DNA of 28,102 nucleotides from an uncultured virus (IMG/VR IMGVR_UViG_3300029448_000007) (IMGVR_UViG_3300029448_000007); one strand, 5' to 3'; numbered from the stretch's first letter, positions 14,745 to 28,102 are shown. Translations and numbers: made by a program. Notes: generated from the sequence alone by a model not told the origin.

Positions 14745-15472
14745 TAACTAAAGATTTCTGACCAATTTACACTAATTGAATCATCAGTTTTTTCACTGAT
14801 TTTAAACTTCTGACCAGAAAGATGCTCTGGTCGTGCGCCACAAACAAAATTGTTTGTTTCAAATGACAAGTAACCGTCTGCGCCTTTACGGTAGAAATAA
14901 CCGATAGCGTCAGCTTTGGCACATTGAATTGCAGCAAGCTTACCTGTCAAGGAGATGTCCACTCCTACAACGGGTTCTCCGCTTGTCTTTGATTCGATCA
15001 TCCTATCTTTCACATGAGCAATAAGAATTACAGTCTCACAAAGTTTTTCAAACTCAGATATGACTGATTCAAAAGCCAATCTGTGGTAGTGATAACCTGC
15101 GCCTTGAGGCAAGGTTCTAACATCATCACCTTGATAGTTTCTACCCATAGGGGTTTTCTGATACATCTGCTTTGCAATAGGCAAAACAATTTCTTCGAGC
15201 TCAGTTACTGTATCAAAAGCAATCCTTTTGTAAGGCTTCTCTGCAGCTACAATAGCTTCTCTAAGATTTCTCAAGTCATCTACATTGTTGACTTGAACGC
15301 TCATACACTCAGCATACTTACTACCATCTTCGGTATCTACAATAAGGGTATCTTCCAAAGCTGAAATAACAGTGGTCTTACCCTGCTTGGGTGGTGCATA
15401 GATGATAAGCCTTGAGGGGTTTACCCTCTCTCGCTTAACTCTCTTGGTTGGCAATTGCATCTCTTTCTGCAT
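14744..15472 (-). CDS. Sak4-like / AAA_24 P-loop ATPase (recombinase)
   Basis: YAPPKQGKTT (Walker A), VDTEDGS, IAFDTVT, GAGY, LIAHVK, ADAIGY. Confidence 0.85.
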   Translation of the reverse strand: MQKEMQLPTKRVKRERVNPSRLIIYAPPKQGKTTVISALEDTLIVDTEDGSKYAECMSVQVNNVDDLRNLREAIVAAEKPYKRIAFDTVTELEEIVLPIAKQMYQKTPMGRNYQGDDVRTLPQGAGYHYHRLAFESVISEFEKLCETVILIAHVKDRMIESKTSGEPVVGVDISLTGKLAAIQCAKADAIGYFYRKGADGYLSFETNNFVCGARPEHLSGQKFKISEKTDDSISVNWSEIFS

Positions 15473-15986
15473 CTAAGTTTCTATTTTCTGCGTTAGACAC
15501 CTCGAATTTTTCAGGGAATCTTGCTTTCAGTTTTCTGATATTAGCTTCCCTAACTTCATCGGGGTTTAAAGAATGTGCTGTACACAAGTCGTTGATGTGT
15601 GTAAACACAGTATGGAGATAGTAATTATAGAAGCATTCGTCTTCATGTCCTTTAAAATAAGCATTAAAGCCGTCAGCTGCATTATAAATATCACCTGCCA
15701 TTGTTTGTAAAGCTCGTGTAGTTTTAGAACCAATCTTATTGACAGGCTCTACAATACCTAGATTTACATTCAACACACGATCCAGTGTGCAGGTAAAATA
15801 ATACAAGTCACCAAGTTCTTCAATAACGTTTGTAATATCGAGTTCTTTACCATACCCTACAACTTTCTTGAGGGCTGATAGATACTCACCTACTTCGGAC
15901 TTGATACCTAAGACACAATGCTCAACTTGTCTGTCTCTGTCTGCGTCGTCGTTCCAAGTTCTTTTGATTTCTTCTGTATACACCAA
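15435..15986 (-). CDS. MazG-like nucleotide pyrophosphohydrolase
   Basis: LGIKSEVGE...EELGDLYYF...NIRKLKARFPEKF. Confidence 0.85.
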   Translation of the reverse strand: MVYTEEIKRTWNDDADRDRQVEHCVLGIKSEVGEYLSALKKVVGYGKELDITNVIEELGDLYYFTCTLDRVLNVNLGIVEPVNKIGSKTTRALQTMAGDIYNAADGFNAYFKGHEDECFYNYYLHTVFTHINDLCTAHSLNPDEVREANIRKLKARFPEKFEVSNAENRNLDAERDAIANQES

Positions 15987-16717
15987 TTTATTGCTGTTTT
16001 TGCGTCCTTTATTAAAAGACTGTTAACTTGTTTGAAATGTCCCGAAGGATTAAAAGAATTTACTCCATAGAATCCTGAAGATGGGTGTCCTGTAGAAAAT
16101 ACTCTATGCTCATCAGAGACTATGGATTTAGCTTGTTTGCCCCATGCCATAACAATATCAGTAGGAGCAACGTGGAGTACAAATTTAATAAATTTATTCC
16201 ACGCAGGAGAAAAAGGAAATGTTAAAGATGAATTTAAAAACAATACGCCTTCGGAAGATAAGCTTTTAAGACTATCGTCAAAGTTCTTTATCTCTCCAAA
16301 CTCATCGTTCAAAGATTCTTTTATTCTTTTTAATGCATATGGTGTATAGTTTTGGTCTGTACCAAATGCAATACCATTTGCTATATTTTTAATCTGATAT
16401 GGTTCTTGACCAAGTACAATAACCTTAGTCTTCTCAAAGGGACATGCCTTGAAAGCTTCAAATACATTAAAGTTTCCTCTAGGCAGTCTACCTAAGTTCT
16501 TAAAGTACTTGTTATAAAGCATATCGGATAGAGGTTTCTTCCAAGTCCCAAAAGACTTATCTAAAAAATCTTCATACTTTATATTCTCGTACTCTTTTTG
16601 GTCTTTACTCATCTGTAAATCGACTATTAGATTGCACTTTGTACATTTGAACCACCCGTCGTTTATCTCCACGTACTTATGAAGAGTTCCTTTGCAGTAA
16701 TGCATTGTGCTTTTCAA
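15908..16717 (-). CDS. ung: Family-1 uracil-DNA glycosylase-like protein with N-terminal Cys/His extension
   Basis: VFEAF...KVIVLGQEPY, ANGIAF, GVLFLNSSLT, WGKQA, HPS, HFKQVN...INW. Confidence 0.8.
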   Translation of the reverse strand: MKSTMHYCKGTLHKYVEINDGWFKCTKCNLIVDLQMSKDQKEYENIKYEDFLDKSFGTWKKPLSDMLYNKYFKNLGRLPRGNFNVFEAFKACPFEKTKVIVLGQEPYQIKNIANGIAFGTDQNYTPYALKRIKESLNDEFGEIKNFDDSLKSLSSEGVLFLNSSLTFPFSPAWNKFIKFVLHVAPTDIVMAWGKQAKSIVSDEHRVFSTGHPSSGFYGVNSFNPSGHFKQVNSLLIKDAKTAINWCIQKKSKELGTTTQTETDKLSIVS

Positions 16718-16934
16718 TTAAAAATTCAACATACTGTTTCTTATCACCGTACTTGATGTGACAAGATCTACACAGAGCCATTAGATTCTCAATGAAGTCT
16801 GCTTTCTTACTGCCTCCCATACCACGAGCTTTAATATGGTGTATATCAACAGCAGTCTTTCTGCAAACTTCACAAGGAATCCAATCTGCTTCTGTGTATC
16901 CAAAATGATTAAGATATATTTTTTTGTAGGACAT
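16677..16934 (-). CDS. Small HNH endonuclease
   Basis: CEVC...DIHHI...NLMALCRSCH. Probable start is MSYKKIY at 16934 rather than 17027. Confidence 0.85.
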   Translation of the reverse strand: MSYKKIYLNHFGYTEADWIPCEVCRKTAVDIHHIKARGMGGSKKADFIENLMALCRSCHIKYGDKKQYVEFLIEKHNALLQRNSS

Positions 16935-17616
16935 GATTGATATACACAAGGTGTTGAATGTCCGCATCAAGCAGATGTTTCTTTTCTCCATTGGAGAAGT
17001 GTATATCTTCCGTATCAATGAAGTCAATTACCATTTCTTGCCCATTTAAATACACATATAGGTCTGCTTTTTCTTTTTTACAGTCTAACTTACCATTAAA
17101 GTCTGCCTTTAGTATGTCAATTATTTCATCAACTATATCACTGTTTTTAAATACAGGTCCTTCTTTAATCTTAAGTTTATTCAGACCCATTTCTTTTACA
17201 ATATCTTTTAGATGCTTTAGAGTTACATCTTCAACAGTTTCTAACCAATACCCACGATTAAGAACATACTCATAGATATCAGGACAATGAAAAAATAATT
17301 TGTACTTTTGATTTCCCCAAAGTCTATCTTGTTCTTGAAGTTGCTGATTACATCTTATATAGATTTTATATAATAGATTCCAAAATGTTTTTAGGTCAAT
17401 GTCTACATAACTACGAATACATAAGTAAGCATCTCTTCTGCTTCTGTTTCTACATTCTTTGCATTGAATTCTACCATCTTTGTAAAAAGTCTTTTCTGTA
17501 AAAGTCTTAACAAAGAGGTCTTCAAATGAAGAGGGTGTTTTAGACAAAAAGATATTGTCTGAGGCTTTTAAATAACTTTCTCTCGCCTGAAAGAAAGAGT
17601 CTGACTGTTTTCTCAT
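16909..17616 (-). CDS. Hypothetical protein
   Basis: 235-aa ORF with ATGA overlap with the helicase stop. Confidence 0.6.
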   Translation of the reverse strand: MRKQSDSFFQARESYLKASDNIFLSKTPSSFEDLFVKTFTEKTFYKDGRIQCKECRNRSRRDAYLCIRSYVDIDLKTFWNLLYKIYIRCNQQLQEQDRLWGNQKYKLFFHCPDIYEYVLNRGYWLETVEDVTLKHLKDIVKEMGLNKLKIKEGPVFKNSDIVDEIIDILKADFNGKLDCKKEKADLYVYLNGQEMVIDFIDTEDIHFSNGEKKHLLDADIQHLVYINHVLQKNIS

Positions 17617-18734
17617 TCGTTTCTAAATCTTTCGTACATTGGTGATGTGATTTCTGATGCTGGAGGAAGCTCTCTAAAATAATTAGAGGCACCTTTGAAA
17701 AGTAGTCCTGTTTCTTTACCTACAGGACCGTATCTGTTTTTCAGTGTAATAACACTCCTAAATTCATCCTGCAGAATCTTAGTGTTGTATTTCTGATAGT
17801 TGTTGATGCCATGATAATACGGGTTAAATATTCCTAGTATGGTATGTGCATCACGCTGAGTAAGTTTATTGTCGGCAAGCTTAGCCTTTGTAGGCTTTAG
17901 CTTTTCTTCAATCTTACTACCTAGCTTGGTAAACTCAGCGTTTTCACCATCTGAAACTTGCTGTTGAACATTGATGAATATATAGTTGAGGTTCTTTGTT
18001 ATGTTCATACGACCATAATCAGAACTCATCCTCGACATAGCTTTATGTAGAGTTTCTGCGTCCTTTTCTGGTGATAACAAAGAGAAGTGGTCAACCACAA
18101 CGATGACATATTCTTCTTCATCGTTAGGTATATAGTGAGAGAAAGCCCAATCAGATTTATCTCTAACAAGATCGAATTGGTCTCTGCTTAATACATTATT
18201 CTTTAGTGGGTCTTGCTTATAGTTATAATAATAGAATGTGCCATTCTGTAAAGCATACTCTTTAACCCTTTTGTAAATACCTGTTGGATTAGATATAGTG
18301 TCTATGATTTCAATATCCTTTGCAATATCGGAGAATTCTTTCTCTTCTTTCTCAAGGATGTTAATAACCTTAAGATCAACAGCTTCGCTCATAGACTGAA
18401 GCTGATTAACGTCTACTTTGATTTGATGTTTCTGATATAGATGGTTACAAAATAGACTCCTTGCAAACTCTGAACGAGTTTCTTCGAGAGCAAAATACAA
18501 AACCTTAAGTCTAATATTATTGTCTCTACAAAAAGTTCGTGCGTGATATAACCAATGCTTAGTAAACTGAGTCTTACCGACGCCAGAACCAGCAGTAAAA
18601 ATATAGTAATTACCCTTTATAAGACCAGGTATTACAGACGAAAATCTAGAAAATGGATTTGCTATACAGTTTACTTTACCTTCTAAAACTCTCTCTCGAT
18701 TACGTTTAAGCTCTTCAAGAGTTTGTTTTATCAT
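17613..18734 (-). CDS. DnaB-like replicative helicase (crAss-type)
   Basis: AGSGVGKT, YFALEE, VVVDHFSL, VQQQ, QRDAHTILG, LKNRYG. Confidence 0.88.
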   Translation of the reverse strand: MIKQTLEELKRNRERVLEGKVNCIANPFSRFSSVIPGLIKGNYYIFTAGSGVGKTQFTKHWLYHARTFCRDNNIRLKVLYFALEETRSEFARSLFCNHLYQKHQIKVDVNQLQSMSEAVDLKVINILEKEEKEFSDIAKDIEIIDTISNPTGIYKRVKEYALQNGTFYYYNYKQDPLKNNVLSRDQFDLVRDKSDWAFSHYIPNDEEEYVIVVVDHFSLLSPEKDAETLHKAMSRMSSDYGRMNITKNLNYIFINVQQQVSDGENAEFTKLGSKIEEKLKPTKAKLADNKLTQRDAHTILGIFNPYYHGINNYQKYNTKILQDEFRSVITLKNRYGPVGKETGLLFKGASNYFRELPPASEITSPMYERFRNE

Positions 18735-19021
18735 AGACGGTCACTGATAAGTTTAATAATAACCAGAGGTATAACAATAGAAAGAGCCAATGCAATAGGA
18801 TTATGACTGCATGTGACAGAAGCTGCTGTTAAATAAATAATAAATCCAAATGCAGCACTGGTAGGATTTACTTTTTGAATCATAGTAGTGAATCTAGCTT
18901 TGTACAAAGCATTCTTTTCACTTTTAGCGTAGATAGGAATCTCTTTTCCTTTCTTTGTAGTCACAATGTATTTGTTGTACTCCTCATGACTATTTGATTT
19001 TCTAGCAATTCTAATTTTCAT
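18731..19021 (-). CDS. Small protein with two C-terminal hydrophobic segments
   Basis: AAFGFIIYLTAASV and IALALSIVIPLVIIKLI. ATGA overlaps on both sides. Confidence 0.55.
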   Translation of the reverse strand: MKIRIARKSNSHEEYNKYIVTTKKGKEIPIYAKSEKNALYKARFTTMIQKVNPTSAAFGFIIYLTAASVTCSHNPIALALSIVIPLVIIKLISDRL

Positions 19022-19575
19022 ACCATTGTATTTTCTTCTTCTTGCAATTGCTCACAGTATGTAAGAAGGTCGGACAGTTCTATCCTTGTTTTTTCTTTCA
19101 GCACTGTTTTAAAGATGAAATAATCAGCTTGTCTTATATACTTGTAGTTTGTCTCAGAGTTTTCATTGATGTAGTTCTGAGTAGCTTCAAGTATCTGATC
19201 GTCTGTATAATCATACAGCGTTCTAAAACGAGCCATATTCTTCTCGACAAGTTTTTTGTTACCTATCGATTTAGATTTCAGACCTTCAAATAAAGATCTG
19301 TATTGACTAATAAAGTCACCTGATGTTTCAATGGTAAGCCCTTGTGTTACCTGTTTACCTTTATACCGCAGAGTATTTGAATACTGTCCTATCTTAATAT
19401 ACTTCTTTGCTTCAAGTATCTCTATGTCTTCTGCTGGTATTGGATATTCCTCACCCATCGCTAACATCACCAAGTAGGTATATTGATTTGGTGATATGGA
19501 TAACTCAGTAAGAAATTCTGTTTGGAAACTTATCTGCAATTGTTTTGAGAGTTTTAAGTTCCTCAAAGAAATCAT
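19018..19575 (-). CDS. Hypothetical protein (possible replication initiator/helicase loader)
   Basis: 185-aa ORF upstream of the helicase. The function is inferred from position only. Confidence 0.5.
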   Translation of the reverse strand: MISLRNLKLSKQLQISFQTEFLTELSISPNQYTYLVMLAMGEEYPIPAEDIEILEAKKYIKIGQYSNTLRYKGKQVTQGLTIETSGDFISQYRSLFEGLKSKSIGNKKLVEKNMARFRTLYDYTDDQILEATQNYINENSETNYKYIRQADYFIFKTVLKEKTRIELSDLLTYCEQLQEEENTMV

Positions 19576-19601
19576 CCAGAGCCTCTAGCTGAAAGTATAT
19601 C

Positions 19602-19805
19602 TCAGCTAAGGACTTCGGATTTGAATCTTCGGTACGCTTTTTCAACAGTTTCATCTTTGATATGAAATTCTAAGTAACCTTTATCTGTCTGTATCGTCCC
19701 TGAGATAGAACAATTTTCAACATCATTGCTATACACTTTAGGTCTAGCATCAATATGAAAATGTCCTAACTCAGGGTGTTCTTTGAATACTTTATCAATA
19801 TCCAT
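19602..19805 (-). CDS. Hypothetical protein
   Basis: 67-aa ORF overlapping the SF2 helicase end. Confidence 0.5.
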   Translation of the reverse strand: MDIDKVFKEHPELGHFHIDARPKVYSNDVENCSISGTIQTDKGYLEFHIKDETVEKAYRRFKSEVLS

Positions 19806-20919
19806 TTACTTCTGTTACATTGTACACATTCAAGTCAATCATTGACTTGTCAAACCATTTCTCTTCTTGAGTATATAGTGTCCTAAGAACGTACACTTTA
19901 CTCTTACCAGGAGAAAGTCTTAATCTTCCTAACCTTTGGATCATAGGTAATGTCTTACCATAATAGGAATGCATCAGAATATTCTGTACACCCTCTATGT
20001 TTGCACCTTGGGTCAGCAATTTAAATGAGGCGATGTTTTCAATCTTACCTCTCTCAAAAGCTTCTATTACTTGCGGACTATCTTTACGCTCACCTGAAAC
20101 TGTGTTTGGTGTGAGCTTTTCTAAAGCAGGTAAAGAGTTACCAAAGATAAGTAATCTTTTGGTGTCCTTGATAATTTTCTTAGCAACTTCATGCTTTGTA
20201 TTTGACGTATGCAGACATTCAAGACGCTTTCTGATAGCGTACTTCATCTGAAACTCTGCACTCTTTACACCTTTGTTTTTGAGCATAGCCGCTTTCTTAA
20301 AAGCTTTATCCCAATAGACATAGTTTTCCCACTCAGTAGTCATAAACTTTTTAGTCTTACTACCAGCCTCAATATTCTTTACTTTGTTGTCGAGTCTGAA
20401 GTTGACTACAATAATATCAAGTGGCTTTGACGTGCCGTTTTTGACACTATCGGTAAGTGAATAAGTATATACGACGGGAGCATACTTATCAAGTATGTCA
20501 CCCTTTGTGTAACCATCATACTCTACAGTTCTGTCAGTGGTTGCTGTCAAACCCATAAGCGCATCATAAGTATTGTTCTTATAAAACGATGAGTATGTAG
20601 GAGTTAGAGAGTCATGTATCTCATCAGCACCAACAAGTCCGAAGTGTTCTCCTTTCCATTTGTGTGCTGTTTGATATGTATTGAACTCAATCTCTACATC
20701 AAGAATTCTCTTGTCAATCTCTGCAAACTGCTGTATGTTTTTGCGTAGAGCATCTTCTCTGAGCTTTCTCTCCGCAAGGAATATCTTTCTACCTTCTGTA
20801 ACAAGACACGCTTTTAAAAACAACCATGTCTTACCAACACCTGTTGCTATCTCTGCAGTACCTTTCTTCGTTGGAAGCCATGCTTGTAAAGCTTCTTCCT
20901 GTATCTGATTTCTATTCAA
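19795..20919 (-). CDS. Superfamily 2 (DExH) helicase
   Basis: QEEA, ATGVGKT, ADEIHD, GLTAT, QGANI, QRLGRLR. Confidence 0.9.
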   Translation of the reverse strand: MNRNQIQEEALQAWLPTKKGTAEIATGVGKTWLFLKACLVTEGRKIFLAERKLREDALRKNIQQFAEIDKRILDVEIEFNTYQTAHKWKGEHFGLVGADEIHDSLTPTYSSFYKNNTYDALMGLTATTDRTVEYDGYTKGDILDKYAPVVYTYSLTDSVKNGTSKPLDIIVVNFRLDNKVKNIEAGSKTKKFMTTEWENYVYWDKAFKKAAMLKNKGVKSAEFQMKYAIRKRLECLHTSNTKHEVAKKIIKDTKRLLIFGNSLPALEKLTPNTVSGERKDSPQVIEAFERGKIENIASFKLLTQGANIEGVQNILMHSYYGKTLPMIQRLGRLRLSPGKSKVYVLRTLYTQEEKWFDKSMIDLNVYNVTEVNGY

Positions 20920-22730
20920 AACAAACTTCCTGTTTGGTTAACTATTTGATCTATGATCTTGTTAGCTTCTCTTGTGTAGAACTTGTAGTTGATATCTTTG
21001 AACTCGTGTGCATAATTAAACGGTTCAACATTATATCCTTTCCACACAAACTCTTTTCTTCCATCATCGTACTTTTTAAGAAGCACAGGCCCCTTGTTTG
21101 CAATAATATATCTAAAGTTCTTACCTACTGGCTCGTCACTATTGACGGTAACCAGATGACCTTTAGAATTTCTTCCAAACTTGGTAGCCATACAGAAGTC
21201 AAATATGTTATCTGACTCTTTAACTGTTTTTTCTACGGGTATTCCCTTTATAAAATAGTTCTCAATGGCTTTAGAAACAATGACCATCGAATGGTCTTTA
21301 TGAAACTCTCTTTCAGTGACAAACATTTTACCTTTCTTCTTTATCTTACCACTTGTGGTTTCAAAGATGAAGTTGTTGCAGTCACGCAAAGCCATCATTT
21401 TAAATCTGTCATACTCTACAGGAATATCAAAAGAAGCAAAAAACTCATCTGTAATTCTTTCCAACTCTTTTTCATTCTCAGGTTTGAGTTTATAAGTAAG
21501 ACCATCTGTGTTAGCATAAATTATCTTACCAACAGACTGTAGTTTTTCAGCCAACATAATAAGCATAAGCTGACCGTTAATAGTCACTTTGTATAAACAG
21601 AATGGGTCATACAAGAAAGAATACTCATCATTAAGTTTACCGTAGATAGAGTTAACAGTAATTTTTAATGACGCAGCTTCAAGTGCTGCTTCAGGGTCAC
21701 CTTTCTTTTTCTTGGCTTCAAGTCGTCTTGTAACTATCTCTCGTAGCACGTCAAGAAACTCAGGACCAAGATGCCTTGGAAATATATTAAATGTCAACAT
21801 CAGATGTGGGTAGTAGCTACCAGCATCTAAGTCTTTTAGAATAAACTCTCCTTCTTTTAAATAGAAAGGGTCGTTATCTGAATGCAAACCACCTTTTGCT
21901 ACTTTAAGTGGAAGCTCATCAAGTAAAAACTTGATCTCTTCAAAGTTACCGATGTTTTTTCTTCTTAGATCTTCAAGTAAAGACTGAAGTCTTGGGCTTT
22001 CAAATTTGATACGCTCATCAATAATATGTTCCATCCTGTAGTTGCGATACTGACCACGAAGATGTTTTATATAAGACTCTGCTTTACCTGTGACACGACA
22101 ATACTCTTTGAGCATTACTGTCTCACCAATAGCTGAGTTAGAGTGGTTTGATAGTTTTATACCATACTTTTTACCCAAGTCTTTACGAAGCTTGAGCATC
22201 TCTTGTGTTTCAAAGTGGTTGTAAAACTTCTCAGTCTCTCTAACATCATGTATATTATATGATATGACCTCATCAAATACAGACTCGTCAAGATAAGTTC
22301 CTGGAGGGTATGGAAGGTCTCTAACATCTTTAGACTGCATAGCAATCTCAAGACCTTTTAGTGATGTTCTCCGTGCTTTGTTATTGAAATGCCATAGCTT
22401 GAATAAATCAAGCTGTCGTATCCTATTTTTTACCATAGGATGCTTATTCTCAATAACTTCCTCATTGAAGTCGTATATAGCTTTGTTGATATCTTGAACA
22501 TGAGGTAAGTCTGAATCCATTACAAAGGATAAAATCTTTTGGTCATAGTGTAAACTATTAAAACCAATAAGACCTTTCACACCTTTGAGAAAATTATTCA
22601 TCTGTCTTAGCTCATTCTTTCTCTCGGAAACTTCGTAAGTATATACCTCATCTTCAAATGCAAATGTTACACAAAAGAAGTTAGGATATACCTCAATATC
22701 ATAGATATAGATCAGGCTTTTTTGCGCCAT
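20916..22730 (-). CDS. Family B DNA polymerase with 3'-5' exonuclease domain
   Basis: ExoI YDIEVY, ExoII GFNSLHYD, ExoIII YNIHDV. Polymerase motifs DLDAGSYYP, LKITVNSIYGK, YANTDG. Confidence 0.93.
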   Translation of the reverse strand: MAQKSLIYIYDIEVYPNFFCVTFAFEDEVYTYEVSERKNELRQMNNFLKGVKGLIGFNSLHYDQKILSFVMDSDLPHVQDINKAIYDFNEEVIENKHPMVKNRIRQLDLFKLWHFNNKARRTSLKGLEIAMQSKDVRDLPYPPGTYLDESVFDEVISYNIHDVRETEKFYNHFETQEMLKLRKDLGKKYGIKLSNHSNSAIGETVMLKEYCRVTGKAESYIKHLRGQYRNYRMEHIIDERIKFESPRLQSLLEDLRRKNIGNFEEIKFLLDELPLKVAKGGLHSDNDPFYLKEGEFILKDLDAGSYYPHLMLTFNIFPRHLGPEFLDVLREIVTRRLEAKKKKGDPEAALEAASLKITVNSIYGKLNDEYSFLYDPFCLYKVTINGQLMLIMLAEKLQSVGKIIYANTDGLTYKLKPENEKELERITDEFFASFDIPVEYDRFKMMALRDCNNFIFETTSGKIKKKGKMFVTEREFHKDHSMVIVSKAIENYFIKGIPVEKTVKESDNIFDFCMATKFGRNSKGHLVTVNSDEPVGKNFRYIIANKGPVLLKKYDDGRKEFVWKGYNVEPFNYAHEFKDINYKFYTREANKIIDQIVNQTGSLF

Positions 22731-23143
22731 TCTCCAAGGTTGAGTTTATGTATATCAATAGCATCTGAAATAAGATTCAAATTTGGAAAATAAAGAATTA
22801 TAACAGGTATCTGAATAAATGCTCTGTATGGGTCACAATAGATGTCCATACAACCTATTATCACAATCCAAAGGTATAAGATAGGTAGTGCAATAAGAGA
22901 AATCATCTCTGTCCATAAATACTTAGGGCCTTTGACAGCCACAGAGTTTTGAATTACCTCACCCAAACTATTATTGCTTGTGATTGAAAAGAAAAGACCT
23001 ATTGTAGCCGCTGCTATAATAGGATCCCAAATCATCAAAACAAATAGTGCAATGAGTAGAAGTCTTTGCCAGAATGTAGGCAAATGGTTACCACTGAACA
23101 GAAGAAACCTTCTATTGGTGATAGGTTTGAAGAAATTTTTCAT
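22712..23143 (-). CDS. Multi-pass membrane protein
   Basis: Three to four hydrophobic segments. Confidence 0.6.
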   Translation of the reverse strand: MKNFFKPITNRRFLLFSGNHLPTFWQRLLLIALFVLMIWDPIIAAATIGLFFSITSNNSLGEVIQNSVAVKGPKYLWTEMISLIALPILYLWIVIIGCMDIYCDPYRAFIQIPVIILYFPNLNLISDAIDIHKLNLGEWRKKA

Positions 23144-23609
23144 ACTCTGGTTTTATTTCATCTAAAATCTTTCTTGAGTAATTCTTTTTGCCCAGGTTTT
23201 CATCTATCTGAACAAAAGGATAGTCAATTAATCTTTTGCGTAGAACATAAGCAGCGTCATACCCATATTTATTCTCTATGTGATTGATAAATATGTTTGT
23301 ATGATCTTCTTCATCTTCATAAGCAACGTCAATCTTTAACAACTCAAGTCGTAGAGGTTTTTGACGTTTAATGGAATTGATGTGGAGGTTGTTGATGTAG
23401 AAACCTTTAGCCATTTTCTTAAAATAGTTGACAACATGAGGTATAGATTTGAACTCAGAATCTATCAAAGATTCTACTCTTTCAAGCATATTGTCTAAAG
23501 CTTTGTCAATAGCTATGTCATCTAAATCTTTATGCCTAAACGCGTAATAAAATATTTCAGGCTGTAGAATTTTCGTGTTCTCTACTATCTCCCAACTTAA
23601 TTTTATCAT
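23112..23609 (-). CDS. Hypothetical protein, possibly ECF sigma-factor-like
   Basis: 165 aa. Helical N-domain (IFYYAF...VVNYFKKMAKGFYIN) and C-terminal HTH-like segment (YVLRKRLIDYPFVQIDENLG). Confidence 0.4.
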   Translation of the reverse strand: MIKLSWEIVENTKILQPEIFYYAFRHKDLDDIAIDKALDNMLERVESLIDSEFKSIPHVVNYFKKMAKGFYINNLHINSIKRQKPLRLELLKIDVAYEDEEDHTNIFINHIENKYGYDAAYVLRKRLIDYPFVQIDENLGKKNYSRKILDEIKPEYEKFLQTYHQ

Positions 23610-24126
23610 GGTAGGTATCTAAAAGGTTATTTAGTTTTACGTTAGCCCAGTTGTGACCAGCGTTAGAAATCTCACCACCGATGTTTTTTATATCAGAGAA
23701 TAAATCTCTAACAACATCTTTGAGGTCATTTGTTTTTCTAATGTATTCTTCTTTTAGAACATCTTCTCTTTGCTTGTTATCTAACTGGTCTAAGATAAAA
23801 CTAAAATACTGTTTACTCTTTACTCTTCTCCATATAGGGTCAAGAATACTAATAGCTCTCTGATATTCTTCTTGAATAATCTCGTTGTCGGAGTCAATAG
23901 TACGCTTTTCTAATTTAATACAACTAGTTCTGTGAATACAGCCTAGTTCTTCAGCAATTTCTGTTGGTTTTGCTTCACCAAGTCTAAATAATATGTATAG
24001 ATTTCTTGCAAATACTGCAGCGGCTCTTCTGTTTGGAACCAATACTTCATCAATAGTAATAGTCGAGCTTCTAAAATGCTGTGTTACATTACAGCATTCA
24101 ATCATAAATTCTGGATGTTTGATCAT
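23557..24126 (-). CDS. Protein with DnaA domain IV (Bac_DnaA_C)-like helix-turn-helix
   Basis: ITIDEVLVPNRRAAAVFARNLYIL...PTEIAEELGCIHRTSCI resembles DnaA R...VxARQIAMYL...LxEIGxxFGxRDHTTV. Confidence 0.6.
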   Translation of the reverse strand: MIKHPEFMIECCNVTQHFRSSTITIDEVLVPNRRAAAVFARNLYILFRLGEAKPTEIAEELGCIHRTSCIKLEKRTIDSDNEIIQEEYQRAISILDPIWRRVKSKQYFSFILDQLDNKQREDVLKEEYIRKTNDLKDVVRDLFSDIKNIGGEISNAGHNWANVKLNNLLDTYHDKIKLGDSREHENSTA

Positions 24127-24262
24127 CTAAAATTTCTTTTACGGATTTACCAAAGACTTCTTGTACAGCTTGTTCTGCTGTTTTACCTTCAGTTACTAAC
24201 TTTTTTGCTTCCTTATATTTCTCATTCCAAGAGTCTTCCCAAAATGTAAAGTCGTTACTCAT
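24098..24262 (-). CDS. Hypothetical 54-aa protein
   Basis: Manual translation MSNDFTFWEDSWNEKYKEAKKLVTEGKTAEQAVQEVFGKSV..., with TAATG coupling to the upstream ORF. Confidence 0.5.
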   Translation of the reverse strand: MSNDFTFWEDSWNEKYKEAKKLVTEGKTAEQAVQEVFGKSVKEILDDQTSRIYD

Positions 24263-24480
24263 TATAAAAACCTTGGTGGTTCAAACCATTTTTTAGATAT
24301 TTCATAAACAGAATCATAAACGGAATCGTCAAGATAATCTGCCTCTGTAACTTCAACAACCCACTTTTTAGATTTTGAATTGAATCTCTTTAATCTAACA
24401 AGACACCATGCTAAATTATGAGGAACACCAAGGTTATCTTGTAGTCTGACAATATCACCTACTTCATACTTTATTTTCAT
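24262..24480 (-). CDS. Small SH3-like beta-barrel hypothetical protein
   Basis: KYEVGDIVRL start motif typical of small phage SH3-fold proteins. Confidence 0.55.
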   Translation of the reverse strand: MKIKYEVGDIVRLQDNLGVPHNLAWCLVRLKRFNSKSKKWVVEVTEADYLDDSVYDSVYEISKKWFEPPRFL

Positions 24481-24707
24481 TTTGTTTTAAATTTTTTACG
24501 AAGTTTTCTTACATATTCAAGTAAAGCCATTGCTACTCTTTGATCGGAATCAAACATTCTAGTTAAGCTGGATTCATACATAAATAATTTATCCCACTCA
24601 TAACTTGAAAGTTGACTCATTTCCCAAAGCTCTTTGTCTTTTACTCTTGATGGTATATTGCACTCACAGTTTTCAACTGTTTGATTACAATATTTACAAT
24701 CACTCAT
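24477..24707 (-). CDS. Small protein with N-terminal CxxC...CxC motif
   Basis: MSDCKYCNQTVENCECNIPS. Its ATG comes from the repeat at 24705. Confidence 0.6.
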   Translation of the reverse strand: MSDCKYCNQTVENCECNIPSRVKDKELWEMSQLSSYEWDKLFMYESSLTRMFDSDQRVAMALLEYVRKLRKKFKTK

Positions 24708-25090
24708 CTCTCTTCGGTGTTATCGGGTGTTGTGTCTAATGCTATCCTAAGTACCCATTTAAGAGTATTAATATCTCGCTGAACATCTTCTTTCGCTTGC
24801 ATATAATGTCCTCTAACTTTTGCATCTTCTTCTTTGATTAGAAGTTTTTCAACTGCATCAAGATTTTTTTGCAATTCGTCTATTTTATTCTGTATCTCTT
24901 TTCGATTTTTCATTTCAACATCAGGCATTATACCAAACACCTCATTAATTGTTTCTTTACTATACCCATCTATCTCTAATGCTAATTCTATTGCGCCCCT
25001 AATAGCATAAGGGTAATGACACGTTTTAGTATCTATTGTTACTATTGGTGTTTGAATTTCACTTTGGTTTCTTTCAATAATTATCTTCAT
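24704..25090 (-). CDS. Hypothetical protein (probably two fused modules), ends DNTEER
   Basis: Start reassigned to the repeat-borne ATG at 25090 (MKIIIERN). Internal MKNRKEIQ coiled-coil module. Confidence 0.6.
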   Translation of the reverse strand: MKIIIERNQSEIQTPIVTIDTKTCHYPYAIRGAIELALEIDGYSKETINEVFGIMPDVEMKNRKEIQNKIDELQKNLDAVEKLLIKEEDAKVRGHYMQAKEDVQRDINTLKWVLRIALDTTPDNTEER

Positions 25091-25131
25091 CTCTCTTTGG
25101 TGTTTGTTATTAGATGTTGTAAAACATAAAA

Positions 25132-25299
25132 TTATTCCATCCATTTCTTAGTGCGCCTTAAAAACTTCTTACGGTCATATTTTTTCCACCAACCTTTTTT
25201 GAAGTAAGATAAGTGTTTACCTTTTTTATCCAAAGGCGCACCACAATCACCTTCTTCGTAATTGTGCCATTTCTCTGTTTTTACTCTTCCTATTTTCAT
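25132..25299 (-). CDS. Hypothetical 55-aa basic protein
   Basis: MKIGRVKTEKWHNYEEGDCGAPLDKKGKHLSYFKKGWWKKYDRKKFLRRTKKWME*. Starts at a repeat ATG. Confidence 0.6.
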   Translation of the reverse strand: MKIGRVKTEKWHNYEEGDCGAPLDKKGKHLSYFKKGWWKKYDRKKFLRRTKKWME

Positions 25300-25331
25300 C
25301 TCTCTTTGGTTTTAGCGGGTGTTATGGTGCA

Positions 25332-25526
25332 TTATCCCTCGCTAGGTACTTTTGTCTTTTCTCTAGGCTGTTTGGTTTCGTAGTACCAAATATGAATCAT
25401 CGGAAAATTCCTAACACTACCGTCTTCAAACAATAAAGCCAAGGTACACCCCTCAATAAAATGAGATAGTACATTATCATAATGAATTGGTGTTGTCGTG
25501 TCTTTTAGTTTAATCTTTACTTTCAT
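25332..25526 (-). CDS. Hypothetical 64-aa protein
   Basis: Starts at a repeat ATG and stops just before the GTT core at 25321. Confidence 0.6.
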   Translation of the reverse strand: MKVKIKLKDTTTPIHYDNVLSHFIEGCTLALLFEDGSVRNFPMIHIWYYETKQPREKTKVPSEG

Positions 25527-25849
25527 CTCTCTTTGGTGTTTAGTTTAATTTTAGCAGTTTCCAAGCCTCTCCAAATTACACAAGTGGGAAACTTGATTTC
25601 CGTTTTTAACCCCATGTCAAGGGCAATATCTTGAAAGTCTTGAGACATTTCATGCCGCAAATAGCAAAGCATTGAATTTGTTTCTGTCTCAAAAGACCAA
25701 TGAGCATCGTTACCATTACCACTTTGGTCGTACCAAGTTGAAATATAGCCGGTCACCTCTCTTTTGTAAGGCTCACCCACATAAGTGGTGCTTAATCTCC
25801 TTGTTGAGTATGCAGCAAGTGCTTTAGGGTATTCGTTAAGTACGTTCAT
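25523..25849 (-). CDS. Hypothetical protein, ends LNTKER
   Basis: Starts and ends in repeat copies. Contains AAYSTRRL and WYDQSGNGNDA. Confidence 0.6.
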   Translation of the reverse strand: MNVLNEYPKALAAYSTRRLSTTYVGEPYKREVTGYISTWYDQSGNGNDAHWSFETETNSMLCYLRHEMSQDFQDIALDMGLKTEIKFPTCVIWRGLETAKIKLNTKER

Positions 25850-26004
25850 CTCTCTTTGGTGTTTAGATGTTCAAGAATATCAGCGGCCAGGTCCCTGATC
25901 TCTACCAAGATGTCACAAATATCAACGGCCACTTCCCTGACCTTCTTCGCACAGAAGAAGATCACGGAGCACAGGGCGATGGTCAAAAGGATCGTCTGTA
26001 TCAT
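25846..26004 (-). CDS. Small membrane-anchored protein, ends LNTKER
   Basis: MIQTILLTIALCSVIFFCAKKVREVAVDICDILVEIRDLAADILEHLNTKER*. Bounded by two repeats and visibly more GC-rich than its neighbours. Confidence 0.6.
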   Translation of the reverse strand: MIQTILLTIALCSVIFFCAKKVREVAVDICDILVEIRDLAADILEHLNTKER

Positions 26005-26042
26005 TTCTCTTTGGTGTTAGCAGTTGTTGTAGTGCATTGTGC

Positions 26043-26240
26043 CTACCATATTATTGGTCGTTCACACCTTCCGCAAAGTCCTGGCCTACCATCAATATCA
26101 GGTAGTTCACATTCACAACGGCACAACGTACCCTTCGGTTTCATTTTGCATAAATCAAAAAGTCCTTTGTGTTTTTCCTTTGAGGGTATGTGACATTCAC
26201 AATTCTCAATGGTCTGTCCACATTCTTTGCAGTTTTTCAT
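26043..26240 (-). CDS. Small Cys-rich (double Zn-finger-like) protein
   Basis: CKEC...CEC and CRCEC...CGRC motifs. Confidence 0.6.
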   Translation of the reverse strand: MKNCKECGQTIENCECHIPSKEKHKGLFDLCKMKPKGTLCRCECELPDIDGRPGLCGRCERPIIW

Positions 26241-26263
26241 ATTTCTTTAAACGTTGTGGTGCA

Positions 26264-26404
26264 TTAGACTAAATCAATCACTTCAATCGTAAACGCTACT
26301 CCTTCTGTAGAGTAGTGGCGAAGTGCAAACCTGTGTGCGATTCTCGTATAGCTTCGGTCTACTATTTTACCGTTTACTATAATTCTGTATTCTTTCTGAG
26401 GCAT
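26264..26404 (-). CDS. Hypothetical 46-aa protein
   Basis: MPQKEYRIIVNGKIVDRSYTRIAHRFALRHYSTEGVAFTIEVIDLV*. Starts at a repeat ATG and stops beside the core at 26253. Confidence 0.55.
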   Translation of the reverse strand: MPQKEYRIIVNGKIVDRSYTRIAHRFALRHYSTEGVAFTIEVIDLV

Positions 26405-26430
26405 CTTTCTTTGGTGTTAGTGGGTGTTAG

Positions 26431-26625
26431 CTACAATATTCTCTCGGATAGTTTATGCCCTTCTTCCGTAGGAAACTTATGTCCACATTTTGGGCACTTG
26501 CATCTAAGAGTAATGTAACCGTTTAATATTCGGTTTAGCTTCGATTTCATTTCTGCATCATCAGTACAGTTGTAAAGGCTAATAATCTCTTCCTTTAGTT
26601 CTTCTCTAATTTCTTCGTTTGTCAT
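26431..26625 (-). CDS. Small protein with CPKCG zinc-knuckle
   Basis: LRCKCPKCGHKF. Stop lies inside the core site GTTAGCTACAAT at 26426. Confidence 0.55.
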   Translation of the reverse strand: MTNEEIREELKEEIISLYNCTDDAEMKSKLNRILNGYITLRCKCPKCGHKFPTEEGHKLSERIL

Positions 26626-26658
26626 ATCATTAAGTTTTATTTAATTCGCTCATAGGGC

Positions 26659-26829
26659 TTATCTCTCTTCGGTGTTGCAAGTTACTATGTAAGGAGGGTT
26701 ACACGGATTCCGAGTGTCGTTTGGATAGTATGGGTGTATTACTACATGATTTTCTGATAGTAGTATTACTGCTTCTTCTGCTGTAATGTGATTACCCTCT
26801 AATAATCTCTGAATTATCTCTGCTTTCAT
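26659..26829 (-). CDS. Hypothetical 56-aa protein, ends NTEER
   Basis: MKAEIIQRLLEGNHITAEEAVILL...YIVTCNTEER*. Bounded by repeats. Confidence 0.6.
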   Translation of the reverse strand: MKAEIIQRLLEGNHITAEEAVILLSENHVVIHPYYPNDTRNPCNPPYIVTCNTEER

Positions 26830-26969
26830 CTCTCTTTAGTCTTTAGGTATAGCTCAAAAAGTTCAGATAACTTTACCCATTCATTGATATGATTTTTGTA
26901 TAGCCAATAATGAAATTCGGTGTTAAACTCCCTTTTATTCTTGAAGTAGTTTTTTCTGATTTCACTCAT
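26826..26969 (-). CDS. Hypothetical 47-aa protein, ends KTKER
   Basis: MSEIRKNYFKNKREFNTEFHYWLYKNHINEWVKLSELFELYLKTKER*. Bounded by repeats. Confidence 0.6.
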   Translation of the reverse strand: MSEIRKNYFKNKREFNTEFHYWLYKNHINEWVKLSELFELYLKTKER

Positions 26970-26991
26970 CTCTCTTTGGTGTTAGCTGGTG

Positions 26992-27366
26992 TTAGTGGCA
27001 ATTTTACTCACCACTCCGAAAGACATCAGCGTTGAAATATTTAGCCAAGTTCTCAACCTCTTGCTTAAATTCTGTTTCATCACGCATTGTCTTGCATAAC
27101 AATATTTCTACAACTCCATCTACTTTTTTGCTCAAACAATAAGCAAGAGCATTTTTATCGTAAGTGTCAACGCCCATTGCATAATACGGCTGTTTAATGA
27201 TAGCTTTATCCAACAGAGATTTGTCGAATAAAAAACTGCCACTAACATCGGCTATAAAATCATTGCCGTTTTTGTGCTTACCAGAAGTTTCGTTCTCTTT
27301 ACTCATTTTGTTTCTAATTTGAAAGTTATAGCGTTTTAATCGGCAACGCTTCATAGCCGTGATACG
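26992..27366 (+). mobile_element. Integron-like gene cassette 1 (gene antisense to attC)
   Basis: Starts G/TTAGTGGCA (26991-27000). Perfect inverse core TGCCACTAAC (27237-27246) opens the attC-like hairpin ending at GTT 27366. Confidence 0.75.
27004..27306 (-). CDS. Cassette-borne hypothetical protein (100 aa)
   Basis: Probable start MSKENET at 27306, inside the hairpin loop. Reads FIADVSGS across the left arm. Confidence 0.65.
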   Translation of the reverse strand: MSKENETSGKHKNGNDFIADVSGSFLFDKSLLDKAIIKQPYYAMGVDTYDKNALAYCLSKKVDGVVEILLCKTMRDETEFKQEVENLAKYFNADVFRSGE

Positions 27367-27372
27367 TTATCT
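27240..27372 (+). other. attC-like recombination site A
   Basis: cactAAC-at-CGGCTAT-aaaat-cattgccg ... cggcaacg-cttc-ATAGCCG-tgatac-GTTatct. Confidence 0.75.
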
Positions 27373-27643
27373 ACAAGTTTTTTGTAGACTCTACTTTATC
27401 ACGAACAGCGTTGATATAGGCTTTGCCATAATTTCTAAAATCACCTGTCTTTCCTTTTTTCATAAGTTTATCTACGTGTTGGGTTTCTAATCCTTCAAGC
27501 AAAGCCCTTAACTTTCGTTTATAACTATTTCTTGCTGGGTATAAAAACCAGTAGATAACACGGGCTATAAAGCCATTTTTTGAATCTTTCTGCATAATAT
27601 TAATATTTTAGGTTTATAAAAACAGGCTCATAGCCCAGCTACG
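27367..27643 (+). mobile_element. Integron-like gene cassette 2
   Basis: Starts G/TTATCTAC (27366-27374). Perfect inverse core GTAGATAAC (27551-27559). Confidence 0.75.
27371..27595 (-). CDS. Cassette-borne hypothetical protein (74 aa)
   Basis: ATG inside the hairpin loop. Reads FIARVIY across the left arm. Stop lies in the core site. Confidence 0.65.
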   Translation of the reverse strand: MQKDSKNGFIARVIYWFLYPARNSYKRKLRALLEGLETQHVDKLMKKGKTGDFRNYGKAYINAVRDKVESTKNL

Positions 27644-27649
27644 TTAGGC
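27553..27649 (+). other. attC-like recombination site B
   Basis: agatAAC-ac-GGGCTAT-aa-agcc ... ggct-c-ATAGCCC-agctac-GTTAGGC (canonical GTTRRRY). Confidence 0.75.
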
Positions 27650-27973
27650 TTCATTACCGAGACGCATTATATCATCAAGTTTTTCTGATAATTCGTTCCT
27701 TGTTTGTTCTGCATGAGTGTATCTACGTACTCCATACAAATGCATCATATATTTTACTTCTTCGATAAATTCAAGCAAAGAAACGTTAACATCGGCTAAA
27801 ACGAAATTATTATTTACTTTAATCCTGCGTTCCATTTCTTGCCTTGCTTCTACATAAGCATCGTGCATATTTTTACTTCTTGGGTTGTTTAATGCTCGGC
27901 TGTGCAGTTGGCACACTAACTCAAGCAAGTCAAGAGTATTTCTTTCTTCAACTGGTTTTAGTTCTGTATTCAT
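27644..27973 (-). CDS. Cassette-borne hypothetical protein (109 aa)
   Basis: ATG inside the hairpin loop. Reads VLADVNVS across the left arm. TAA overlaps the core site. Confidence 0.65.
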   Translation of the reverse strand: MNTELKPVEERNTLDLLELVCQLHSRALNNPRSKNMHDAYVEARQEMERRIKVNNNFVLADVNVSLLEFIEEVKYMMHLYGVRRYTHAEQTRNELSEKLDDIMRLGNEA

Positions 27974-28023
27974 ATTTATTGTTTTTAATTCGTAAATAAT
28001 AACTATCGTTTAGCCGTGTTCCG
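27644..28023 (+). mobile_element. Integron-like gene cassette 3
   Basis: Runs from core G/TTAGGC to GTT at 28023. The inverse core (cgttaac) is only partly complementary. Confidence 0.6.
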
Positions 28024-28029
28024 TTGTTC
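27784..28029 (+). other. attC-like recombination site C (unusually long loop)
   Basis: cgttAAC-at-CGGCTAA-a-acga-aa-ttattatttac ... gtaaataataa-cta-tcgt-TTAGCCG-tgttcc-GTTgttc. Confidence 0.65.
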
Positions 28030-28102
28030 GCAATTAAGGCAGGTTCAATTCCGAAACAGGACAAAAGTGAGTTGGGTAAAAATCAAATTCAGTTCCACTT
28101 AC

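Follow-up and report, generated by a model that had tools for sequence, protein, structure and literature searches.

What joins a run of small genes without assigned function in a phage genome, and how did those genes come to stand side by side? The question is raised by one end of the window, by which we mean the whole 28,102-nucleotide stretch analysed here (IMGVR_UViG_3300029448_000007), the partial genome of an uncultured marine phage whose host probably belongs to the Flavobacteriia. Between 24 and 28 kb, small genes lie on the minus strand as contiguous ORFs with ATGA overlaps (Table 1). The module downstream of them encodes a family A DNA polymerase, helicases, primase, Sak4-like annealase, exonuclease and RusA, together with MazG, HNH and an amidoligase/GATase/COOH-NH2 ligase/GGCT set. 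Profile scans covered 55 window ORFs, in sets of 28 ORFs and of 16 small ORFs against PHROGs and of 27 ORFs against Pfam. A preliminary description had proposed that at least ten of the array genes arrived by one mechanism, marked at gene 3' ends by a shared core, GTTR-N5-MAT, and had read this core as an integron-type recombinase box differing from the canonical GTTRRRY.

We located all ten of the claimed 12-mers, nine of which match GTTRNNNNNMAT; the exception, at 27366, ends in AAG, as had been stated. Their position at or just past gene 3' ends also held, with the qualification that the genes concerned are on the minus strand, where the pattern reads ATK-N5-YAAC. Of the 14 minus-strand array genes, 8 have a core at the stop codon, as has 1 of the 30 minus-strand genes outside the array (Fisher p 1.3e-4). 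Enrichment over shuffled sequence proved to be local: the plus strand of 24700-28102 holds 9 matches against 1.68 ± 1.31 (at least 9 in 0 of 1000 dinucleotide shuffles), figures that, like those for the stop codons, are overstated because the pattern was fitted to the same sites, whereas the whole window, both strands, barely exceeds expectation (32 matches against 23.25 ± 4.54; at least 32 in 3 of 100 shuffles). GTTR-N5-MAT was pieced together after the fact from parts of two larger repeats. Five cores (24729, 25321, 26026, 26426 and 26991) form the upstream half of a 36-nt long-form junction (repeat family D3), those at 25116 and 26253 are looser versions of that half, and the remaining three (27366, 27643 and 28023) are the 5' (left) edge of a separate repeat (families D10/D19). 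No single element links both halves of the array: they carry two different ones, which are differently distributed in public data. Common to both is little beyond YAAC right after the stop codon, and the (A/C)AT ending of the cores originates partly in TAATG stop/start overlaps and partly in ATT.

A neighbouring 17-mer, AACACCAAAGAGAGATG, gives a far stronger signal than the cores. We counted 10 copies with at most 3 mismatches where 0.12 would be expected; every copy is on the minus strand, and only one does not end in the ATG of an ORF. The real unit at 24.7-27.0 kb is this box, AACACCAAAGAGAG, followed by ATG(A). Five copies have a long form of 36 nt, reached by a further (T/C)AACACC block placed 10 nt upstream; read on the opposite strand, that block is the core of the preliminary description. 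Most instances elsewhere are of the short form, without the second repeat, and the extended consensus across IMG/VR is AACCTTT-AACACCAAAGAGAG-ATGA.

Table 1. Junction elements of the small-gene array and the regions around them, in window coordinates.
Feature	Positions	Strand	Basis	Remarks
Box J1 AACACCGAAGAGAGATG	24705..24721	-		ATG starts 76-aa gene 24477-24707; upstream 128-aa gene reads through box (...NTEER*) and stops at overlapping TGA
J1 long-form upstream half, with core 24729-24740	24722..24740	-	repeat family D3
Box J2, exact 17-mer	25088..25104	-		ATG starts 128-aa gene 24704-25090; core 25116-25127 lies 12 nt upstream, opening mini-ORF ATGTTTTACAACATCTAA
Long-form box J3 ATGCACCATAACACCCGCTAAAACCAAAGAGAGATG, with core 25321-25332	25297..25332	-	repeat family D3, 17-mer scan	upstream stop overlaps as TAATG; stops in all three frames
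Box J4, exact	25524..25540	-		upstream 108-aa gene ends ...NTKER* at overlapping TGA
Box J5, exact	25847..25863	-		upstream 52-aa gene ends ...NTKER*
Long-form box J6 ATGCACTACAACAACTGCTAACACCAAAGAGAAATG, with core 26026-26037	26002..26037	-	repeat family D3, 17-mer scan
Degenerate junction J7 TAATGCACCACAACGTTTAAAGAAATATG, with core 26253-26264	26238..26264	-
Long-form box J8 ATTGTAGCTAACACCCACTAACACCAAAGAAAGATG, with core 26426-26437	26402..26437	-	repeat family D3, 17-mer scan
Decayed box J9 AACACCGAAGAGAGATA, without ATG	26660..26676	-		gives 56-aa gene ...NTEER* and TAA stop; next gene starts 35 nt further, at 26625
Box J10 AAGACTAAAGAGAGATG	26827..26843	-		upstream 47-aa gene ends ...KTKER*
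Long-form box J11 ATTGCCACTAACACCAGCTAACACCAAAGAGAGATG, with core 26991-27002	26967..27002	-	repeat family D3, 17-mer scan	stop codons in all three frames
Second-type element TAACGTATCAC GGCTATGAAGCGTTGCCGATTAAAACGCT ATAACTTTCAAATTAGAAACAAA, then ATG; with core 27366-27377	27307..27377	-
Second-type element, partial copy AACGTAGCTGGGCTATGAGCC, with core 27643-27654	27596..27654	-	D10, D19	small hairpin then T-run; 27643-27623 terminator-like
Second-type element, partial copy CAACGGAACACGGCTAAACG, with core 28023-28034	27974..28034	-
Array of 16 small genes, 46-128 aa, without assigned function	24098..27973	-	ORF and PHROGs/Pfam scans
Phage replication, recombination and nucleotide-metabolism module, downstream of array	4628..24126	-	profile scans

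At these junctions the next gene starts with the ATG of the box, the previous one frequently finishes at the box's TGA or TAA (...NTKER*), and the final five to eight amino acids of the preceding protein are often encoded in the box. Across 343,635 bases of fetched loci, 187 of 190 copies of CCAAAGAGAG run straight into ATG, A occupies position +4 in 141 of 148, and no conservation was seen beyond -9 or past +4. The upstream ORF stops at the overlapping TGA (...NTKER*) in 53 of 128 instances, at a TAA within the box in 17, and 7-87 nt upstream of the box in 37; within the first half of the window's array, 0-40 nt separate an upstream stop from the following ATG. In some contigs the box ATG opens just a 9-codon mini-ORF and the real gene start follows ~45 nt later, an arrangement that a promoter or leader would fit equally well as a plain start site. 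We rejected a Shine-Dalgarno-type site. Complementarity of the box to Polaribacter 16S rRNA or its 3' tail, a stand-in that may not be the host's, is no higher than that of shuffled boxes (-5.6 kcal/mol for the duplex with the last 20 nt, equalled by 150 of 300 shuffled boxes), and the spacing to ATG is zero rather than 5-9 nt.

The box is widespread among viruses. At least 123 IMG/VR stretches contain the 17-mer without mismatch, and many marine viral contigs that are unrelated in other respects carry the box with hardly a letter changed. Records with the box span 31 to 212 kb. One record carries 21 copies on a single strand in two clusters. In 596 Gb of prokaryote genomes we found just 57 single 17-mer matches, approximately the chance number; the context was of phage type in six, three of which are Flavobacteriales MAGs. 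Nothing resembling the box was found upstream of the window's other genes. Because it is absent there and from host-type genomes, the box is not the signal that the host normally uses for initiation, and a factor specific to the phage could be involved.

Boxes also coincide with the points at which related sequences part. Among 131 box instances (8515 pairs), 29 pairs share flanks upstream only, 24 downstream only and 2 on both sides, and at +18 and -8, exactly the box edges, a mean identity of 0.97-1.0 gives way to one of 0.2-0.5. A relative, L221, is 95.6% identical over 7.6 kb and turns unrelated exactly upstream of J1. Natural variants tell the same story: one contig from a marine DNA run joins 24703 to 25296, with sides of 686 and 255 nt; another of its contigs, record 27 of X5, joins 26006 (J6) directly to 25300 (228 and 387 nt); and joints from 26984 to 28023 were seen in X2, X5 and X19. 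Over four runs, boxes were the site of most listed joints and loose ends, many of the contig joints having short sides (19-46 nt) placed at 90% likeness. Set against the window, both L221 and the marine metagenome contigs show whole-gene differences located at boxes. What survives of the proposal that the genes arrived by one mechanism is a cassette-like array with shared junctions at which genes are gained, lost and re-ordered; the recombinase box does not. Selection alone would also concentrate breakpoints at gene boundaries, even if the box did nothing to promote recombination.

In our view the box is probably a portable junction for translation, a 'stop/start adaptor', and doubles as a linker through which homologous recombination shuffles genes. 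The 17-mer AACACCAAAGAGAG plus ATG, usually then A, supplies the downstream start codon and an overlapping TGA, and usually adds a TAA in another frame, ending whichever gene is upstream. Its primary role may be that of a translation-initiation or translational-coupling signal in a polycistronic early or accessory transcript, a role that would rest on AAAGAGAG. Because it is identical in many genes and phages, the box could in addition act as a 17-26-nt homology patch where recombination, general or encoded by the phage, swaps, removes, adds and rearranges whole genes; the window has a Sak4-like annealase, an exonuclease and RusA of its own. Gene exchange at boxes is most likely driven by homology, not by a site-specific recombinase, and selection for staying 'compatible' may in part keep the box invariant. 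More tentatively, and with somewhat more doubt than belief, we suggest that many marine phages share the near-invariant 26-nt 'plug' (AACCTTT-AACACCAAAGAGAG-ATGA) as an integrase-free cassette exchange network, its invariance coming from compatibility selection and not from expression alone. If so, a small gene bearing the plug could move into any plug-bearing phage, by homology alone or through a plug-recognising factor, in a network spanning marine phages that differ in genome size and gene content, with each plug closing one frame and opening the next.

Two known systems offer parallels, and the box can be regarded as analogous to both the lambdoid boundary sequences and the PeSLs of T4-type phages. 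In the modular theory of Susskind and Botstein, the boundary or 'linker' sequences of lambdoid modules are said to be short homologies where modules exchange. Like these, the box is a short gene-boundary homology common to dissimilar genomes and found at similarity breakpoints. Unlike lambdoid linkers, which comprise many pairwise homologies, it is one near-invariant 17-26-nt sequence at dozens of junctions, and it includes the translational stop and start themselves. PeSL (promoter-early stem-loop) cassettes of T4-type phages were reportedly also a subject of Comeau et al. in 2014. Arbiol et al. 2010 (PMC2839356) describe them as short conserved regulatory motifs, each a sigma-70-like promoter plus a terminator stem-loop, between small non-essential genes in variable regions; the function of the flanked genes is given as unknown, insertions, deletions and replacements end in the motifs, and recombination between copies is the proposed cause. 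The box likewise repeats between small ORFan genes, and the indels and replacements of relatives end in it. It differs from the PeSLs so described in having neither sigma-70-like promoter nor terminator stem-loop, in abutting the start codon, supplying stops and coding for the upstream protein's last residues, and in occurring in many apparently unrelated marine viral contigs, not in one phage lineage.

That the box is instead a phage-specific promoter, recognised by an RNA polymerase or sigma factor of the phage or by a host polymerase that has been redirected, seems unlikely to us. The mRNAs would then have very short leaders and the role as mosaic junction would be secondary, as in T4 PeSLs. 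Several features lean this way: the ~26 conserved nt are a typical length for promoters of single-subunit polymerases, a transcript could start at the purine-rich GAGAG, the box is specific to phages, and in the mini-ORF contigs the gene start is not the box ATG. The box may also resemble T7/SP6-type promoters, with CAC at -7..-5, A at -1 and G at +1. Yet the spacing to ATG is fixed at zero, one promoter per 150-400 nt before 21 consecutive small genes would be unusual, and the size range of box-bearing records fits poorly with one phage-encoded polymerase specificity. Some instances directly follow terminator-like hairpins, but upstream hairpins with a T-run are not enriched (6 of 128 instances versus 7 of 245 controls), and among the window's junctions only 27623-27643 is terminator-like. 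Sigma-70-like sites show no excess (10 in 23500-28102 versus 15.4 ± 3.7 in shuffles, none in boxes), and TAnnTTTG was not found on the minus strand of 24-28.1 kb. The polymerase profile PF00940 hit 0 of 20 box-bearing records (6 at least 90% complete), a weak result as the control genomes were silent too.

Less probable still is that the box is conserved because a sequence-specific factor binds or cleaves it, as RNA or as DNA. Such a factor might be a repressor of early-gene translation akin to T4 RegA, or a nuclease, whether one for processing, as RegB is, or one of the homing type. Conservation so extreme goes well past the needs of unstructured initiation regions, the distribution is phage-specific, the window encodes an HNH endonuclease, and the (T/C)AACACC direct repeat of the long form, with its 10-nt spacing, resembles a two-site binding target. 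However, the second repeat is missing from most instances elsewhere, and we found no candidate factor common to the box-bearing records (bS21 in 1 of 20, tyrosine recombinase in 0 of 20).

Integron cassette arrays are one-directional, with small promoterless genes, a recurring junction and single-gene gain and loss, and their attC sites are imperfect palindromes of ~57-141 nt (R''-L''...L'-R') that fold as hairpins. The window's small promoterless genes are likewise one-directional and singly gained or lost at recurring junctions, the cores lie locally enriched at gene 3' ends, and two natural-variant joints have the first base of a core (27366 and 28023) as their exact starting point. The array differs from integrons in lacking IntI, an attC palindrome and a coding-strand GTTRRRY. 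No tyrosine recombinase or integrase was found among the 55 ORFs scanned in the window, itself a partial genome, and PF00589 gave no hit in any of 20 further viral records with the box, although it was detected in 14 of 14 control genomes. GTTR is on the non-coding strand, and GTTRRRY fits 1 of 10 cores (GTTAGGC at 27643). We rejected attC sites at the junctions, which at 0-40 nt and unstructured have neither room nor fold for them: MFE is 0 kcal/mol for 26965-27010 and 26400-26445, where 200 of 200 shuffles fold at least as well, and among eight junctions folded (0 to -8.5 kcal/mol) only 25295-25345 beats its shuffles. With the pattern marginal window-wide and accounted for by two larger, unrelated repeats, the notion of a site-specific recombinase acting on a variant core GTTR-N5-MAT at cassette ends is already largely refuted, and we regard it as highly improbable.

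The cores at 27.3-28.0 kb border the other element, of ~75 nt, which is common to the window and Cellulophaga phage phi17:1. By our own reading of the frames, core 28023-28034 abuts the TAA (28034-28036) of a gene entering from past the window end. In phi17:1 (KC821617.1) the region upstream of gp8 is 89% identical to window 27232-27369, including the start of the 100-aa gene. Unlike the window, phi17:1 lacks the AACACCAAAGAGAG box, its best match to CCAAAGAGAGATG having 2 mismatches and no ATG. This second-type element, which lies upstream and is longer than the box, accompanies one gene family for the most part, and it is present in 37 IMG/VR stretches.

The first half of the array is dominated by a repeat that reads AACACCAAAGAGAGATG on the minus (coding) strand. 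With the adjoining ATG(A) it forms an unstructured, phage-specific box that is tied to the start codon and provides both stops and a start. Ten copies with up to 3 mismatches lie between 24705 and 26983, all on the minus strand, against 0.12 expected; AAAGAGAG and AACACC are segments of it. In nine copies the next gene starts with the ATG of the box, which has decayed to ATA in the tenth (26660), and no structure is predicted for the box region. Because the base after this ATG is nearly always A, ATGA provides a TGA stop for the upstream gene, and five upstream proteins consequently end in ...NT(K/E)ER or ...KTKER. Five junctions take a 36-nt long form (repeat family D3), with a second (T/C)AAC(A)CC block 10 nt upstream and AT(G/T)-N5 before that block. 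Two of them (25297-25332 and 26967-27002) hold TAA, TAA and TGA within their 36 nt, each in a different frame. By our own reading of the frames, the ATG of the upstream core begins a mini-ORF of 5-6 codons at four junctions, closed by the TAA of the box, and there sometimes overlaps the upstream stop as TAATG.

The upstream half of a long-form junction, read on the plus strand, is the GTTR-N5-MAT core that the preliminary description took for an integron-type recombinase box shared by both halves of the array. All ten proposed 12-mers are present at their positions, and 8 of 14 array genes have a core at their stop codon, versus 1 of 30 other genes. The pattern had been fitted to the same sites on which enrichment was measured; against shuffled sequence, it is enriched on the plus strand of 24700-28102 (9 matches versus 1.68 ± 1.31, a count reached by none of 1000 shuffles) but barely exceeds chance across the window (32 versus 23.25 ± 4.54, with 3 of 100 shuffles reaching 32). 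The core pattern is a real signal, yet it marks no more than the margin of larger repeats. The claim of a single consensus does not hold, since the halves carry different elements whose common part is essentially YAAC after the stop codon. We also rejected the integron/attC reading, as integrase, attC structure and core orientation all speak against it.

In the second half, the repeat is a different one (families D10 and D19), reading AACG-N6-GGCTA(TGA)... on the coding strand, and it contains the cores at 27366, 27643 and 28023. The stretch 27307-27377 plus the first 75 nt of a 100-aa gene is 89% identical to the sequence upstream of gp8 in Cellulophaga phage phi17:1, the likeness starting at TAACG, directly after the upstream stop codon. 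An 18-mer from this second-type element occurs in 37 IMG/VR stretches (loci L183-L219). Conservation of the element spans ~75 nt and reaches the ATG; it stands mostly upstream of one small-protein family, MSKEN...NGND (NGND near residue 20), and the preceding sequences are unrelated. It holds a 6-bp hairpin (AGCGTT...AACGCT) and a TAACTTT(C/T) block, and looks like a putative promoter/operator region.

Beyond the window, the box is near-identical across unrelated genes and phages. The exact 17-mer recurs in at least 123 marine viral contig stretches of IMG/VR. The block conserved across 148 distinct contexts reads (A/T)AACCTTT-AACACCAAAGAGAG-ATG-A; conservation stops at -9 and +4, with A at +4 in 141. 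Within the fetched loci, ATG comes directly after CCAAAGAGAG 187 times out of 190. Among the 128 instances with enough flank, the upstream ORF stops at the overlapping TGA in 53, at the TAA within the box in 17 and 7-87 nt upstream of the box in 37, while 20 have no long upstream ORF. Box DNA is thus coding in about half of the instances and non-coding in the others, which points to selection on its nucleotides rather than on the tail peptide. Copies are clustered, with 21 on one strand of a 63.6-kb record, in two clusters; five records that are 96-100% complete carry 1-4 apiece. The largest box-bearing record, G006 (the 212-kb IMG/VR record behind locus L030), encodes a bS21 homologue at 47911-48063 (E 1.4e-11).

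Prokaryote genomes (596 Gb) contain the 17-mer 57 times, always singly, where ~69 occurrences would be expected by chance at equal base frequencies (our own arithmetic). Only six show the phage-type context, three in Flavobacteriales MAGs and the rest on short contigs belonging to MAGs or single-cell genomes. Together with its viral spread, these chance-level, single occurrences make the box a trait of uncultured marine phages, not of host genomes. The public runs in which window DNA occurs carry marine or aquatic metagenome labels. A blastn search of 50,697 cultured phage records with a 43-nt box context and two box-rich loci gave no meaningful match, under a low-complexity filter that may mask the box itself, and the box is absent from phi17:1. 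The phi17:1 match of the second-type element and the Flavobacteriales MAG contigs point to a probable host among the Flavobacteriia.

Similarity breakpoints and natural gene indels sit exactly at the box. We compared 131 distinct instances over 120-nt flanks, collapsing identical 257-nt contexts. Across 8515 pairs, 29 shared the upstream flank only, 24 the downstream flank only, 2 both and 8232 neither; in one-sided pairs, mean identity drops from 0.97-1.0 to 0.2-0.5, stepping exactly at +18 or -8. Between 24722 and 17145 the window shares 95.6% identity with the IMG/VR contig L221, and the two are unrelated upstream of box 24705-24721. A 941-nt contig from the marine run X5 (listed 'DNA?') joins 24703 straight to 25296, with two genes missing, and a 672-nt contig from this run joins 26006 straight to 25300, with three missing; both have long, nearly identical sides flanking the joint. 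Across the four runs compared, boxes are also where most of the listed joints and loose ends fall. A joint from 26984 to 28023 appears in runs X2, X5 and X19; the three genes of the second type are missing from it and a long-form box remains. The sides of many joints are short (19-46 nt) and aligned at 90% likeness, so some derive from other phages with the same box; these likewise show the same genes beside different neighbours. Two joints in an RNA-library run go back along the window, a different gene order, and the contigs fit either circles or rearranged relatives. Contigs of the RNA runs X18 and X19 span several cassettes and say nothing of transcription or transcript ends.

Junctions, joints and annotated genes of the window
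Feature	Coordinates	Strand	Remark
Long-form junctions	24705-24740, 25297-25332, 26002-26037, 26402-26437, 26967-27002	minus	Family D3
Further joints at boxes	25104 to 25516/25526, 25541 to 25846, 26031 to 26966, 25334 to 26966		
Family A DNA polymerase	20916-22730	minus	~31% identity to best cultured-phage matches, crAss-like phages
Two helicases, primase, Sak4-like annealase, exonuclease, RusA		minus	PHROG/Pfam scans
MazG-like pyrophosphatases and HNH endonuclease		minus	PHROG/Pfam scans
Amidoligase / glutamine amidotransferase / COOH-NH2 ligase / gamma-glutamyl cyclotransferase set		minus	PHROG/Pfam scans
Array of 16 small genes, 46-128 aa	24.1 kb to window end	minus	Many ATGA overlaps

We suggest that the box would act as a translational start/coupling signal within a polycistronic transcript and may also offer a homology patch for whole-gene exchange, with the phage's own annealase, exonuclease and resolvase as plausible agents. 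An unlikely alternative is that the box is a phage-specific promoter; its fixed spacing to the ATG counts against this, terminators are not in excess upstream of boxes, and neither are sigma-70-like or Bacteroidetes-type promoter boxes in excess. The Bacteroidetes-type -7 box TAnnTTTG occurs 28 times in the window versus 35.3 expected, never on the minus strand of the array, and near boxes elsewhere it lies upstream 6 times and downstream 5 times in 75 instances. None of 20 box-bearing records yielded a single-subunit (T7-type) RNA polymerase, in a scan that was silent on control genomes too. A crAss-like virion RNA polymerase was also discarded as a candidate, the 1504-aa ORF having neither a DFDxD motif nor a family match. 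Sorting boxes into operon-internal and operon-first by open frames was uninformative because short AT-rich genes yield spurious antisense frames. For phi14:2, a preprint reports that the sequences upstream of early transcripts have no motif in common (10.1101/2020.03.07.982082). Less probable still is a binding or cleavage site for a candidate factor, as neither bS21 (1 of 20 records) nor a tyrosine recombinase (0 of 20; control positive in 14 of 14) is common to box carriers. With that same single record, bS21 was dropped as the partner of a special initiation signal, and rRNA pairing, whether Shine-Dalgarno-like or tethering-like, did no better than shuffles.

A variant junction occurs in eight other contexts (among them L051:323-400, L062, L063, L070, L073, L098 and L112), where the box is followed by a 9-codon mini-ORF, a palindrome and then the real ATG. 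The mini-ORF, opened by the box ATG, is conserved as MSRCTPHRK, with its stop in the palindrome loop. The palindrome reads GCAAATAAATTTGC or alternatively GATAAATAAATTTATC, with compensatory changes in both arms (GCAAAT..ATTTGC or GATAAAT..ATTTATC); the gene ATG lies 2-3 nt past it, and the same leader precedes different genes. The layout of this leader would fit a ribosome-relay design, but shuffled sequences are predicted to fold just as well (z -0.08).

That phage genomes become mosaics through short 'linkers' common to gene boundaries is a long-standing proposal with few well-documented cases: PeSLs in T4-type phages and some lambdoid boundaries. The known systems closest to the box are these PeSL cassettes and the lambdoid boundary sequences. 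PeSL cassettes are promoter-terminator sequences (PMC2839356), whereas the box is a stop/start adaptor. Unlike both, the box gives the proteins upstream of it a common tail and is nearly invariant and common to many dissimilar marine viral contigs. A full-text literature search found nothing relevant on the box sequence or the peptide tail. With a recurring 17-26-nt sequence that shows sharp edge breaks and whole-gene variants, the linker idea can be tested directly, in a group of ocean phages that is abundant and little studied. The ...NTKER C-terminal tail, put by the box onto unrelated proteins, is a useful annotation flag and a caution against taking it for a protein motif. Absence from host-type genomes and lack of rRNA complementarity raise the question of how genes start in phages whose hosts do not use Shine-Dalgarno sites.

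PHROG and Pfam scans identify the window as phage, and its GC content is 35% throughout. The 1504-aa ORF (3-4517, plus strand) is 5'-open and the sole plus-strand gene; it has no Pfam family and at most a marginal PHROG match. The minus-strand run at 7585-13325, which also includes a match resembling ribosomal-protein-S6-glutaminyl-transferase (ATP-grasp), is a peptide-ligation/modification gene set inside the replication module. At 16926-17144, 219 bases are replaced by 3 in the close relatives L221 and L222, which are 94-96% identical to the window on either side; the HNH endonuclease ORF (16677-17027) has its start, and a 235-aa ORF its end, in this segment. No tRNA was found at the window end, where a GGTTCAATTCC-like string had suggested one. 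A 189-aa minus-strand protein between array and polymerase (23557-24126) has no Pfam match even at E up to 5, and its stretch KPTEIAEELGCIHRTSCIKLEKR resembles a sigma-region-4-like or LuxR-like helix-turn-helix. Pfam and PHROG scans assigned no function to the 16 array genes, and a pattern method retrieved no IMG/VR relatives of the 108-aa one. Two of them, 24477-24707 and 26043-26240 (both minus strand), are paralogues over their first ~25 residues (M..CK.C.QT.ENCEC.IPS; 38% identity over 61 aa, E 1e-12), with a common cysteine-rich, zinc-ribbon-like N-terminus and differing C-termini.
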